IMG/VR virus record: IMGVR_UViG_2521172733_000013
Origin: a virus
Taxonomy: Duplodnaviria > Heunggongvirae > Uroviricota > Caudoviricetes
Strand: one strand, 5' to 3'
DNA length: 39,572 nucleotides
This document shows positions 5,486-13,803 of the stretch, piece by piece (the stretch's first letter is position 1; each line of letters opens with the position of its first letter). The position numbers and the translations under genes were made by a program. A model generated the notes under the pieces. The model had not been told where the DNA came from. It did no database searches and saw only the letters and a list, made by a program, of their open reading frames with translations.

Positions 5486-5686
5486 TCAGGCAGCTTTGTT
5501 GTTCTGTTTACCAAGTTCTCTGGCAATCATTGCCGTCGTTCGTATTGCCCATTTATCGACATATTTCCCATCTTCCATTACAGGAAACATTTCTTCAGGC
5601 TTAACCATGCATTCCGATTGCAGCTTGCATCCATTGCATCGTTTGAATTGTCCACACCATTGATTTGTATCAATAGTCGTAGTCAT
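5486..5686 (-). CDS. ral: Ral (restriction alleviation)
   Basis: 66-aa ORF MTTTIDTNQWCGQFKRCNGCKLQSECMVKPEEMFPVMEDGKYVDKWAIRTTAMIARELGKQNNKAA matching lambda Ral. Confidence 0.9.
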   Translation of the reverse strand: MTTTIDTNQWCGQFKRCNGCKLQSECMVKPEEMFPVMEDGKYVDKWAIRTTAMIARELGKQNNKAA

Positions 5687-5899: not shown

Positions 5900-6481
5900 A
5901 TGAACAACTCATGGTGGCAGGAACTAATGCATTTTTTCCTGCAAGGAATGACACTTAAACAGTTGATTCATATGCTAATCATCCTGATCATATTGATTAT
6001 TGTTATGCCGGTAAGCGTGAAAGAATGGATAAACCTGCATAATCCAGAAATCCTTCCTCATTACTGGATGTATTACATCCTGTTGTTTTGCGTTAGCTAT
6101 GTGCTTAACGGCGTTGTTAATTCCGCTTATCACGCTGTGACTGAAAGAATTGAGGTATTCGCTGCTCAGAAGCGCAAATCTAAAGAAGAAAAATATGTGC
6201 AAGATTTGTTTGATTCGTTAACTCTTGGAGAAAGAGCGTATTTGGCATTCGCTGTAGCCGCTAATAACCAGCTACAAACGGAAAAGGGAGCTCATGAATC
6301 AATTTCATTGCTCAAAAAAGGACTCCTCGTTCGAAGGCCTCCTGCTGTTGGATATCCTGATACCGACCGTTTCGTTATCCCTGAAAGCTATAGACATGAG
6401 TGCTACATTAGGTTTGCCAGGAAGGCAGACAGCCTTATGGATGAACTTATCGCTCAGGATAAGCATGGCAAAAACAAGTAA
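5900..6481 (+). CDS. sieB: Superinfection exclusion protein B
   Basis: 193-aa ORF with hydrophobic N-terminal segments (LIHMLIILIILIIVMPV), transcribed rightward between ral and N as in lambda; matches my recollection of SieB. Confidence 0.8.
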   Translation: MNNSWWQELMHFFLQGMTLKQLIHMLIILIILIIVMPVSVKEWINLHNPEILPHYWMYYILLFCVSYVLNGVVNSAYHAVTERIEVFAAQKRKSKEEKYVQDLFDSLTLGERAYLAFAVAANNQLQTEKGAHESISLLKKGLLVRRPPAVGYPDTDRFVIPESYRHECYIRFARKADSLMDELIAQDKHGKNK

Positions 6482-6497
6482 TTAGCAAATGAATTTA

Positions 6498-6770
6498 TCA
6501 TCTCGCCGTCAATTGTTTTGATTTCCGGTAGCCTGCCGCGTAAACGGCTACGTTTGGCAGGCAAATACTTCCACTGCATTCATCTGCCTTCTTGCAGCGA
6601 AGGCTTCCGAGTGATGCTGCTTTGTCTGCTCTGACGCAACCAGAGAGCTTTAGCGCAATTTTTCGCGCCAGTCGCTGTTCTTGCATTGCCTGCTCACGTT
6701 GAGCCTGTCTGCGTGCTCTGCGGCGATTTCTGGCGTTATCGTCAGCCAGATATGTAATGACTACTGCCAT
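6498..6770 (-). CDS. N: N-like transcription antiterminator (non-lambda type)
   Basis: 90-aa ORF from the ATG at 6770 with a GGAGG RBS; arginine-rich motif NARNRRRARRQ near the N-terminus; C-terminus YAAGYRKSKQLTAR resembles P22 gene 24 / N-family proteins; sits just downstream of nutL. Confidence 0.75.
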   Translation of the reverse strand: MAVVITYLADDNARNRRRARRQAQREQAMQEQRLARKIALKLSGCVRADKAASLGSLRCKKADECSGSICLPNVAVYAAGYRKSKQLTAR

Positions 6771-7080: not shown

Positions 7081-7731
7081 TTATGGAAGGTTTGCTATTT
7101 TTGCATCGACAACTACACCGATGATTTTGCAGTTCCCGTTGATCTCAATCATCGGATATTGTGGGTTAAGTGGTTTTAGAAACCTTCTGCCAGCATCAAT
7201 AACTAACTTCTTGAAAGTTGCCTCGTTTTCTCCTTCGAGCTTTGCCACTACCAGCTTCCCATTACGAGGTTCTACTTCAGGATCGACTAGTATTATCATC
7301 CCTTCCGGGATGCTAAGACCGGCTGGAGCCGTCATCGAATCACCCTTTACGTCCAGCCAAAACGAATCTTCTGAACAATCTACGGTTGTATCGTACCAGT
7401 TATCTATTGCACGCTTATGATATGGCTCTACAGCTTCCATCCAACATCCTGCGCTTACCCAACTAATTAGAGGATACGAACCTCTTGGATCATGCCTGCT
7501 GTGATAGGCAATGTTTGAAAGACTATCTTCTCCTTTCAACAAGTAATCAGGGGAGCACTGTAAAGCCTTGGCTAAAGCCAATAGGTTTTCGCCATTGGGC
7601 TCAGTTTCAGAACGCTCCCATTGGGAAATAGCAACATTAGACACGCCAACCATCTTGCCAAGGGCAGCCTGCCTAATCTTAAGTTCTTTTCTGCGAGCGC
7701 GAATACGCTCACCCATCAGTTGTGTATTCAT
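7081..7731 (-). CDS. cI: Prophage repressor, CI/C2 type (HTH plus LexA-like S24 autopeptidase domain)
   Basis: 216-aa ORF; N-terminal HTH (QAALGKMVGVSNVAISQWER) and C-terminal S24 domain (GDSM...KLVVAKLEGENEATFKKL); closely resembles P22 C2 as I recall it, not lambda CI. Confidence 0.9.
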   Translation of the reverse strand: MNTQLMGERIRARRKELKIRQAALGKMVGVSNVAISQWERSETEPNGENLLALAKALQCSPDYLLKGEDSLSNIAYHSRHDPRGSYPLISWVSAGCWMEAVEPYHKRAIDNWYDTTVDCSEDSFWLDVKGDSMTAPAGLSIPEGMIILVDPEVEPRNGKLVVAKLEGENEATFKKLVIDAGRRFLKPLNPQYPMIEINGNCKIIGVVVDAKIANLP

Positions 7732-10303: not shown

Positions 10304-10376
10304 CCATCTACATCACTGAGCTAATAACAGGCCTGCAGGTAATCGCAGGCCTTTTTATTTGGGGGAGAGGGAAGTC

Positions 10377-10817
10377 ATGAAAAAACTAACCTTTGAAATT
10401 CGATCTCCGGCACATCAGCAAAACGCTATTCACGCAGTACAGCAAATCCTTCCAGACCCAACCAAACCAATCGTAGTAACCATTCAGGAACGCAACCGCA
10501 GCTTAGACCAAAACAGGAAGCTATGGGCCTGCTTAGGTGACGTCTCTCGTCAGGTTGAATGGCATGGTCGCTGGCTGGATGCAGAAAGCTGGAAGTGTGT
10601 GTTTACCGCAGCATTAAAGCAGCAGGATGTTGTTCCTAACCTTGCCGGGAATGGCTTTGTGGTAATAGGCCAGTCAACCAGCAGGATGCGTGTAAGCGAA
10701 TTTGCGGATCTATTAGAGCTTATACAGGCATTCGGTACAGAGCGTGGCGTTAAGTGGTCAGACGAAGCGCGACTGGCTCTCGAATGGAAAGCGCGATGGG
10801 GAGATCGGGCTGCATGA
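10377..10817 (+). CDS. ninB: NinB (recombination mediator)
   Basis: 146-aa ORF from MKKLTFEIRSPAHQQNAIHAVQQ..., matching lambda NinB. Confidence 0.9.
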   Translation: MKKLTFEIRSPAHQQNAIHAVQQILPDPTKPIVVTIQERNRSLDQNRKLWACLGDVSRQVEWHGRWLDAESWKCVFTAALKQQDVVPNLAGNGFVVIGQSTSRMRVSEFADLLELIQAFGTERGVKWSDEARLALEWKARWGDRAA

Positions 10818-11341
10818 CTATCAAATCAAATACGCCAGCACACGACAAGGACTGCTGGCAAACGCCGCTTTGGCTTTTTGATGCACTGGATATTGAGTTT
10901 GGATTCTGGCTGGATTCGGCAGCGAGCGACAAAAATGCTCTGTGCGCTCACTGGCTAACTGAGGACGACGACGCGCTCAATTCTGAGTGGGTAAGCCACG
11001 GTGCAATCTGGAATAACCCACCGTACAGCAATATCAGGCCGTGGGTGGAAAAAGCCGCTGAGCAGTGTATACAACAGCGACAGACGGTAGTGATGCTTGT
11101 GCCAGAGGATATGTCTGTCGGATGGTTCAGCAAGGCTCTGGAGAGTGTTGACGAAGTTCGTATTATCACTGATGGACGGATTAATTTTATCGAACCATCG
11201 ACAGGGCTGGAGAAGAAGGGAAACAGCAAAGGCTCCATGCTGCTGATTTGGCGACCGTTCATCAGTCCTCGACGGATGTTTACTACCGTATCCAAAGCGG
11301 CATTGATGGCGATCGGGCAGGGCGTCAGGAGGGCTGCATGA
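10814..11341 (+). CDS. Phage Dam-family DNA N6-adenine methyltransferase (orphan)
   Basis: 175-aa ORF with NPPY motif ([14 protein letters not shown]); start ATG overlaps the ninB stop (ATGA) and stop overlaps the ninE start; occupies the position of lambda ninC/ninD. Confidence 0.75.
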
Positions 11342-11520
11342 GACGACAGCGACGAAGCATCACCGACATAATCTGCGAAAACTGCAAATACCTTCCAACG
11401 AAACGCTCCAGAAATAAACGCAAGCCAATCCCAAAAGAATCTGACGTAAAAACCTTCAACTACACGGCTCACCTGTGGGATATCCGGTGGCTAAGACATC
11501 GTGCGAGGAATACAAGGTGA
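11338..11520 (+). CDS. ninE: NinE
   Basis: 60-aa [55 protein letters not shown]..., matching lambda NinE. Confidence 0.85.
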
Positions 11521-11687: not shown

Positions 11688-12291
11688 ACCAGCGCGAAGA
11701 CGATGTAAAAACGATGAATGTCGGGAATGGTTTCACCCTGCATTCGCTAATCAGTGGTCGTGCTCTCCAGAGTGTGGAACCAAGATAGCACTCGAACGAC
11801 GAAGTAAAGAACGCGAAAAAGCGGAAAAAGCAGCAGAGAAGAAACGACGACGAGAGGAGCAGAAACAGAAAGATAAACTTAAGATTCGAAAACTCGCCTT
11901 AAAGCCCCGCAGTTACTGGATTAAACAAGCCCAACAAGCCGTAAACGCCTTCATCAGAGAAAGAGACCGCGACTTACCATGTATCTCGTGCGGAACGCTC
12001 ACGTCTGCTCAGTGGGATGCCGGACATTACCGGACAACTGCTGCGGCACCTCAACTCCGATTTGATGAACGCAATATTCACAAGCAATGCGTGGTGTGCA
12101 ACCAGCACAAAAGCGGAAATCTCGTTCCGTATCGCGTCGAACTGATTAGCCGCATCGGGCAGGAAGCAGTAGACGAAATCGAATCAAACCATAACCGCCA
12201 TCGCTGGACTGTCGAAGAGTGCAAGGCGATCAAGGCAGAGTACCAACAGAAACTCAAAGACCTGCGAAACAGCAGAAGTGAGGCTGCATGA
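11677..12291 (+). CDS. ninG: NinG / Rap (recombination-associated protein)
   Basis: 204-aa ORF matching lambda NinG ([27 protein letters not shown]...), cysteine-rich. Confidence 0.9.
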
Positions 12292-12959
12292 ATATCTACG
12301 AAAGAATTGATGGCAGCAAATACCGAAATATTTGGGTAGCTGGCGACCTGCACGGATGCTACACGAACCTGATGAACAAACTGGATACGATTGGATTCGA
12401 CAACAAAAAAGACCTGCTCATCTCGGTTGGCGATTTGGTTGATCGCGGTACAGAGAACGTCGAATGTCTGGAATTAATCACATTCCCCTGGTTCAGAGCT
12501 GTACGTGGAAACCATGAGCAAATGATGATTGATGGCTTATCAGAGCGTGGAAACGTTAATCACTGGCTGCTTAATGGCGGTGGCTGGTTCTTTAATCTCG
12601 ATTACGACAAAGAGACTCTGGCTAAAGTTCTTGCCCATAAAGCAGAAGAACTTCCGTTAATCATCGAACTGGTGAGCAAAGATAAAAAATATGTCATTTG
12701 CCACGCCGATTATCCTTGTAACGAATACGAATTTGGAAAGCCAGTTGATCCTCAGCAGGTAATCTGGAACCGCGAACGAATCGGCAACTCACAAGACGGG
12801 ATCGTGAAAGAAATCAAAGGCGCGGACACGTTCATCTTTGGTCATACGCCAGCAGTGAAACCACTCAAATTTGCCAACCAGATGTATATCGATACCGGCG
12901 CAGTGTTCTGCGGAAACCTCACATTGATTCAGGTACAGGGAGAAGTCGCATGGGTATAA
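12288..12959 (+). CDS. Ser/Thr protein phosphatase (PP-lambda / NinI-like metallophosphoesterase)
   Basis: 223-aa ORF with metallophosphatase motifs (GDLHGCY, GDLVDRG, GNHE); resembles lambda NinI; no ninH-like ORF precedes it. Confidence 0.85.
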
Positions 12960-13610: not shown

Positions 13611-13686
13611 GCTGGTTTAGCTCCAATGGTAGAGCAGTCGCCTTGTAAGCGAATGGGTAGCGGTTCAAGTCCGTTAACCAGCACCA
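13611..13686 (+). tRNA. tRNA-Thr (anticodon UGU)
   Basis: Hand-folded cloverleaf: perfect 7-bp acceptor GCTGGTT/AACCAGC, D-arm GCTC-CAATGGTA-GAGC, anticodon loop CUUGUAA, T-arm AGCGG-TTCAAGT-CCGTT, discriminator A and encoded CCA. Confidence 0.75.
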
Positions 13687-13803
13687 TAACTGAGCCGGAG
13701 CCACTGGCTGTCCTGAATTCATCAGTGATAGTTATGCTGCGGCCTTCTTTTTCCCCTTCCCAATATAAGAACTACGCAATCCGTTACTGGCGGAGGCGTT
13801 GCT

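Follow-up and report, generated by a model that had tools for sequence, protein, structure and literature searches.

A phage-type Dam gene of the PF05869 family in place of ninC and ninD in a lambdoid prophage

The gene lying between ninB and ninE in the lambdoid prophage sequence analysed here (IMG/VR record IMGVR_UViG_2521172733_000013, a stretch of 39,572 nucleotides that we call the window) very probably encodes an orphan DNA N6-adenine methyltransferase of lambdoid phages that belongs to the family of HP1 Dam, T1 Dam and M.EcoVT2Dam and has GATC as its target. Base for base and with one gap excepted, the initial 25 kb of the window match the prophage of E. coli O111:H21 strain 15A (NZ_CP077477.1), which is lambdoid and integrated beside icd; in that record PGAP/RefSeq places WP_000153286.1, 'phage N-6-adenine-methyltransferase', at identical coordinates. 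An initial annotation made from the sequence had described a product of 175 residues with an NPPY motif, coupled to both of its neighbours by ATGA overlaps, and all of this is borne out: NPPY occupies residues 68–71, the dam start codon (ATG, 10814–10816) overlaps the ninB stop codon (TGA, 10815–10817) and the dam stop codon (TGA, 11339–11341) overlaps the ninE start codon (ATG, 11338–11340), as read directly from the sequence (Table 1). A Shine-Dalgarno-like GGAG precedes the dam ATG by 10 nt, and the phage 434 record annotates a ribosome-binding site that is equivalent in place. Between this GGAG and the start codon is a GATC site (10803–10806), where lambda has GACA, which is probably without meaning. 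A longer ORF that starts with GTG at 10754 (195 aa) was dropped as the dam start because the homologues are 175 aa long, with their first codon at the ATG that shares bases with the ninB stop. An antisense ORF of 174 aa (10948–11472, minus strand) has no Pfam match and is taken as a shadow ORF.

Table 1 Features of the dam locus and its surroundings (window coordinates)
Feature	Coordinates	Strand	Basis or remark
N gene	6498-6770	-	present in window
CI repressor gene	7081-7731	-	present in window
tR2-type intrinsic terminator between ren and ninB	10329..10352	+	8-bp stem with 6 GC pairs, then T run
ninB (Orf recombination mediator), upstream coupled gene	10377..10817	+	PF05772 8e-55; PGAP
Shine-Dalgarno-like GGAG	10800..10803	+	10 nt 5' of dam ATG; read from sequence
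Junction GGGCTGCATGA	10807..10817	+	ninB stop/dam start overlap; left mosaic boundary with lambda
dam-type CDS, 175 aa	10814..11341	+	WP_000153286.1, phage N-6-adenine DNA methyltransferase
W15-Q-T-P18, part of D-x-W-x-T-P	10856..10867	+	alignment conservation
L33-D-S-A-A37, motif-I-like, after first strand	10910..10924	+	alignment; strand 31-34 in model
N68-P-P-Y71, motif IV (catalytic, adenine-binding)	11015..11026	+	invariant in all alignments; follows strand 64-67 in model
Junction GGGCTGCATGA	11331..11341	+	dam stop/ninE start overlap; right mosaic boundary with lambda
ninE, downstream coupled gene	11338..11520	+	PF05322 2e-43; PGAP

Profile searches, which had been proposed as a check on the methyltransferase assignment, found such a domain at very high significance in three collections. 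Residues 4–169 of the protein align with positions 1–167 of the 169 in Pfam PF05869 (E = 3.7e-65; 219.1 bits against a cut-off of 28.1), the NCBIfam equivalog TIGR01712 (phage N-6-adenine-methyltransferase) is matched over its full length (E = 1.2e-79; 265.6 bits against a cut-off of 97.05), and phrog_111, 'DNA methyltransferase', likewise gives a full-length match (8e-88). The motifs D-x-W-x-T-P, L-D-x-x-A and N-P-P-Y-S follow one another in the window protein in the order of the family. We aligned the window protein with orf32 of the Stx2 phage VT2-Sakai, HP1 Dam and T1 Dam, and in this four-way alignment D13, W15, T17, P18, L33, D34, A37, N41, W66 and N68-P-P-Y-S72 are invariant, as are M94, L95, D99, S101, W104, F105, R122, F125 and K139 further downstream. 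Across 50 homologues the invariant positions are T17, P18, L33, D34, A36 and N68–S72, the invariant alanine there being A36 and not A37, while D13, W15 and Q16 are each at least 90% conserved. By analogy with gamma-class enzymes, LDSAA is the likely S-adenosylmethionine-binding loop. Judged by its sequence, the window protein is a member of the phage PF05869/TIGR01712 family on every count that could be checked.

The fold is consistent with a small enzyme of this type. A confident AlphaFold2 model computed on the 50 homologues (pLDDT 87.9, pTM 0.86) consists of one alpha/beta domain in which LDSAA comes after the first strand and NPPY after strand 64–67, and the protein has the dimensions of the small single-domain enzymes of about 170–240 aa that lack a separate target-recognition domain. 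Sequence searches of the PDB, whether with the single protein or with a profile of 50 sequences, gave nothing meaningful, and the copy searched holds no solved member of the family; the structures of E. coli Dam, T4 Dam and DpnM are present in it, yet show no sequence match to the window protein. Fold comparison of the model placed PCIF1 highest (11.4), followed by M.TaqI (10.0), M.BseCI (9.9), MmeI (9.6), type I HsdM subunits together with CamA (about 9), E. coli Dam (8.5), T4 Dam (7.9) and DpnM (7.8). When aligned to the window protein, E. coli Dam, T4 Dam and DpnM are only 8–9% identical to it, and Foldseek agrees with this picture. The model thus depicts a minimal N6-adenine methyltransferase with the gamma-like order of motifs (I before IV) and without a target-recognition domain.

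These comparisons bear on the designation 'Dam-family' given in the initial annotation, which stands for the phage family PF05869/TIGR01712 and falls for the family of E. coli and T4 Dam. No Pfam match to the latter (PF02086) was obtained at E <= 0.01, PF05869 being the sole family reported, and neither a recognition domain between motifs I and IV nor the specific structural similarity expected of a canonical Dam was found; membership of the alpha-class E. coli/T4 Dam family is therefore rejected on both profile and structural grounds. What E. coli Dam, T4 Dam and DpnM have in common with the window protein is the reaction, the general class-I fold and the (D/N)PPY motif, and their target is GATC, as the literature also gives for the phage family. 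The window protein is thus 'Dam' by name and target only.

Characterised relatives come from phages of quite different kinds. HP1 Dam and T1 Dam are the founding members of PF05869/TIGR01712 and are specific for GATC. HP1 Dam (orf13 of the Haemophilus phage, 173 aa) matches PF05869 at 7e-75 and is 35% identical to the window protein, and T1 Dam (237 aa, from the coliphage) matches at 2e-70 with 32% identity; both share with it D-x-W-x-T-P, L-D-x-x-A, N-P-P-Y-S and M-L-x-P-x-D-x-S-x-W-F, and all three are small and single-domain. T1 Dam is extended at its N-terminus by 48 residues and has an insertion of 14. The genomic settings differ, HP1 Dam being encoded by a P2-like phage and T1 Dam by a virulent T1-like phage, in contrast to the lambdoid nin region of the window. 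Much closer is orf32 of VT2-Sakai (NP_050531.1), which is equal in length and identical at 174 of the 175 residues, the sole difference being D51 in the window protein against A51, in a column that is variable among the 50 homologues. Like the window gene, orf32 is an orphan flanked by ninB and ninE, each of which it overlaps by 4 nt; the nin genes further downstream differ, VT2-Sakai having ant, roi and ninH where the window has ninF, ninG and the phosphatase gene as in lambda. Identical or nearly identical genes are carried by Phi24B, HK97, 434, HK140, SfI, ev207 and many Stx phages, the nucleotide identity being 97–99% for 434 and HK97.

Because orf32 is the only methyltransferase annotated in VT2-Sakai, we infer that it is M.EcoVT2Dam, an enzyme described in PMC6602927 as an orphan methyltransferase of prophage VT2-Sa with a predicted GATC specificity; its cloning is credited to Radlinska and Bujnicki (2001, pmid 11720311) in PMC7556043. 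The prediction that the window protein methylates GATC derives from this literature on M.EcoVT2Dam, taken to be orf32, at 99.4% identity. An enzyme that is active on adenine N6 with a specificity broader than GATC or different from it, which would give protection against several restriction systems or leave a new mark on the host, is a very improbable alternative. In its favour, the modelled protein has no recognisable target-recognition domain, there are precedents in other orphan enzymes of prophages that are non-specific (M.EcoGII, PMC5778455, and the OS31 enzyme), and activity outside GATC would escape DpnI/MboI assays. Against it stands the GATC listing of the 99.4%-identical counterpart, presumed to be M.EcoVT2Dam, in PMC6602927, as does the naming of VT-2 and HP1 among the phages with genes for Dam-like proteins (PMC7556043). 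Moreover, STEC strain 95NR1, which has two extra near-identical copies, has no motif attributed to them (PMC6602927); the only motifs seen are GATC, CTGCAG and CRARCAG, a weak counter-argument as the gene is perhaps silent in lysogens. Of these motifs CTGCAG has been ascribed to a different enzyme, and CRARCAG is listed as predicted for the type IIG enzyme Eco95NR1IX (PMC6602927).

Our analysis also agrees with the earlier proposals that the methyltransferase is solitary and that its gene replaces ninC and ninD of lambda. No restriction endonuclease is present among the annotated genes of window positions 1–37401 of the 39,572, the neighbours of dam are NinB and NinE rather than an endonuclease such as a type II partner would be, and the best PADLOC models for dam are those for orphan methyltransferases (oMTase). 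A restriction-modification or other defence system was rejected on these grounds, namely the lack of an endonuclease gene among those annotated in positions 1–37401 and the orphan-methyltransferase PADLOC hits. The window contains 106 GATC sites, 0.58 of the Markov expectation; this count is uninformative about function because the sites are evenly spread and other palindromes are equally depleted (CTAG 0.41, TATA 0.55, GGCC 0.66). Elsewhere in the window is a gene for the antirestriction protein Ral (5486–5686, minus strand; PF11058, 1.7e-48), adjoined by SieB (5900–6481, plus strand). Ral, which stimulates type I modification, is a second and independent function of the prophage related to restriction and modification.

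The gene order in lambda is ninB-ninC-ninD-ninE, and blastn delimits the exchange to the nucleotide. Homology to lambda at 97% identity ends at window position 10817, equivalent to lambda 41084 and the last base of ninB, and restarts at 98% identity at window position 11345, equivalent to lambda 42097 and 7 nt into ninE, so that 527 bp in the window fill the slot that takes up 1012 bp (ninC and ninD) in lambda. With flanks that are the same at 97–98% nucleotide identity, the slot contains genes for a PAPS-reductase-family protein and for a protein of 57 aa in lambda, and the methyltransferase gene in the window. The 11-mer GGGCTGCATGA is present at both ends of dam and also after ninB in lambda, and the homology to lambda breaks off exactly there; it has the look of a conserved sequence where nin modules are swapped. 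A copy with one mismatch is located at 12281–12291, the junction of ninG and the phosphatase gene. At this point the ninG stop directly overlaps the Ser/Thr phosphatase start (ATGA) and ninH is missing (window 12291–12297), lambda 43044–43232 having no counterpart. The remainder of the region is that of an ordinary nin module: dam lies between ren/tR2 and Q in a tightly packed array, the Pfam search identified NinE, then NinF, NinG, a lambda-type Ser/Thr phosphatase and Q downstream of it, and 4-nt overlaps make up five of the eight gene junctions between P and Q. ATGA stop/start overlaps are a general property of nin regions (PMC8022706) and are not peculiar to the dam gene. That dam stands where lambda has ninC/ninD is mosaicism of the usual nin-region kind, with exchange points that fall on gene boundaries. 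The tRNA-Thr gene annotated by PGAP between Q and the holin gene (13612–13687, plus strand) occupies the place where Stx phages carry tRNA and toxin genes.

Transcription of dam can be deduced from its position. A tR2-type terminator precedes ninB, and the phage 434 record annotates a terminator at the matching place. A search for a promoter of dam itself returned weak consensus matches only, no more than in shuffled sequence. Expression of ninB-dam-ninE should require N antitermination past this terminator, and we infer from the gene order that dam is made mainly in lytic growth or upon induction and not in the repressed prophage; the location in the pR operon, the tR2-type terminator, the N and CI genes and the want of a convincing promoter together suggest that it is a delayed-early lytic product. 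The lambda-type major capsid gene E (23914–24939, plus strand) has an in-frame TAA at codon 233 (24610–24612) and, with this internal stop, counts as a pseudogene in the PGAP annotation. The prophage is therefore probably defective for virions, and in strain 15A the enzyme probably cannot serve virion DNA.

The state of the prophage invites the reading that dam is a relic, inactive or not expressed, which persists as a conserved nin passenger without function in a defective element. To the capsid stop codon may be added the position of dam in a repressed operon behind a terminator and the silence of many prophage methyltransferases in methylome studies. We nonetheless consider this reading extremely unlikely. 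The ORF has no interruption, many genomes and the functional phage ev207 carry copies that are 100% identical to it, and all family-invariant residues are retained. Homologues across Enterobacterales at 60–86% identity have lost neither length nor motifs, a sign of purifying selection. The product is also expressed in Phi24B, where that of the identical gene ('dam', CM2) was picked up by antibodies raised against lysogen cultures and the level of the dam transcript changed significantly upon induction (PMC3342100).

We therefore return to an active phage enzyme with GATC as its target, for which the following course of events can be proposed. The gene would be transcribed from pR in the delayed-early phase, after N-mediated readthrough of the tR2-type terminator, and translated in coupling with ninB and ninE through the ATGA overlaps. 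The product, a predicted single-domain class-I SAM methyltransferase, would bind the cofactor with its motif-I-like LDSAA, hold the flipped-out target adenine with NPPY and transfer the methyl group to N6 of A in 5'-GATC-3'. It could thereby top up the GATC methylation of phage DNA, which replicates rapidly and is left under-methylated by host Dam, and the fully methylated progeny DNA would be shielded from methylation-sensitive nucleases directed at GATC and might possibly evade MutH or SeqA. Lambda and P22 virion DNA is under-methylated by host Dam (PMC8022706), and in cells infected with T1 adenine methyltransferase activity rises and the phage DNA gains m6A (PMC3620542). Protection of phage DNA, one of two roles suggested in the initial annotation, is plausible.

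The other suggested role, an altered host epigenome, is unlikely. With 99.9% of GATC sites already methylated by host Dam, a new host methylation motif is improbable, and 95NR1 shows no additional motif attributed to its extra copies; the location of dam in the CI-repressed pR operon behind the tR2-type terminator likewise speaks against it. In dam+ hosts Dam homologues are indistinguishable from host Dam (PMC6602927). A more ambitious proposal is that the enzyme is not a redundant Dam and has a lytic-phase DNA-modification function of its own, bringing GATC methylation to completion or modifying extra sites, possibly in a way tied to NinC. Such a role, which may serve to block MutH, SeqA or GATC-directed nucleases, we hold to be doubtful.

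The gene is common. A search of 5426 complete E. coli genomes found the 528-bp gene at 95% identity or more in 1566 (about 29%), with copies of 100% identity in Nissle 1917, NU14 and the type strain ATCC 11775. Matches to the ninB-dam-ninE segment come from 426 phage records, those of 434, HK97, HK140, SfI, mEp043 and many Stx phages among them, where the gene bears the annotation DNA adenine methyltransferase. In a tblastn search, 244 phage records have a copy at no less than 95% protein identity and 1906 have a relative, T1-like phages of Escherichia and Klebsiella being included; when cluster representatives at 50% identity were searched, 2429 clusters gave a match at E <= 1e-10. Many database 'proteins' (P0002, P0005, P0011, P0016, P0024, P0040, P0090 and P0121) join the methyltransferase to the product of another gene, namely NinE, NinB, CII, RusA, holin, Q or the replication protein O. 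These are most likely artefacts of gene calling or assembly at the overlapping nin junctions and not real fusions. Four further entries of 500–690 aa (P0136, P0137, P0144 and P0237) combine an N-terminal C5-cytosine methyltransferase domain (PF00145) with a C-terminal PF05869 domain.

Associations of PF05869 with NinC were encountered in several phages. In P0195 (locus L010, 50–1408) a single reading frame joins the PF05869 domain to a NinC-type PAPS-reductase protein, whose match to lambda NinC covers 279 aa at 49% identity; this fusion is known from a single contig, where a sequencing frameshift at an ATGA junction could have produced it. The annotation of Vibrio phage 44E38.1 reads 'Dam methyltransferase with PAPS reductase domain', and some Vibrio phages carry the methyltransferase and NinC as one ORF while Salmonella phage Oslo has the two genes adjacent (records MW824398.1 and NC_018279.1). 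Since dam and ninC occur side by side in Oslo and as one ORF in the Vibrio phages and the P0195 contig, they are not strict alternatives, and dam and the NinC-type protein may be functionally connected.

Taken as a discovery the locus matters little: the observation is correct, yet the gene is already known, being annotated in RefSeq, covered by curated families and widespread in E. coli, and there is nothing new in it here. The recurrent association of PF05869 with NinC is the only thread with the potential to lead to something new.
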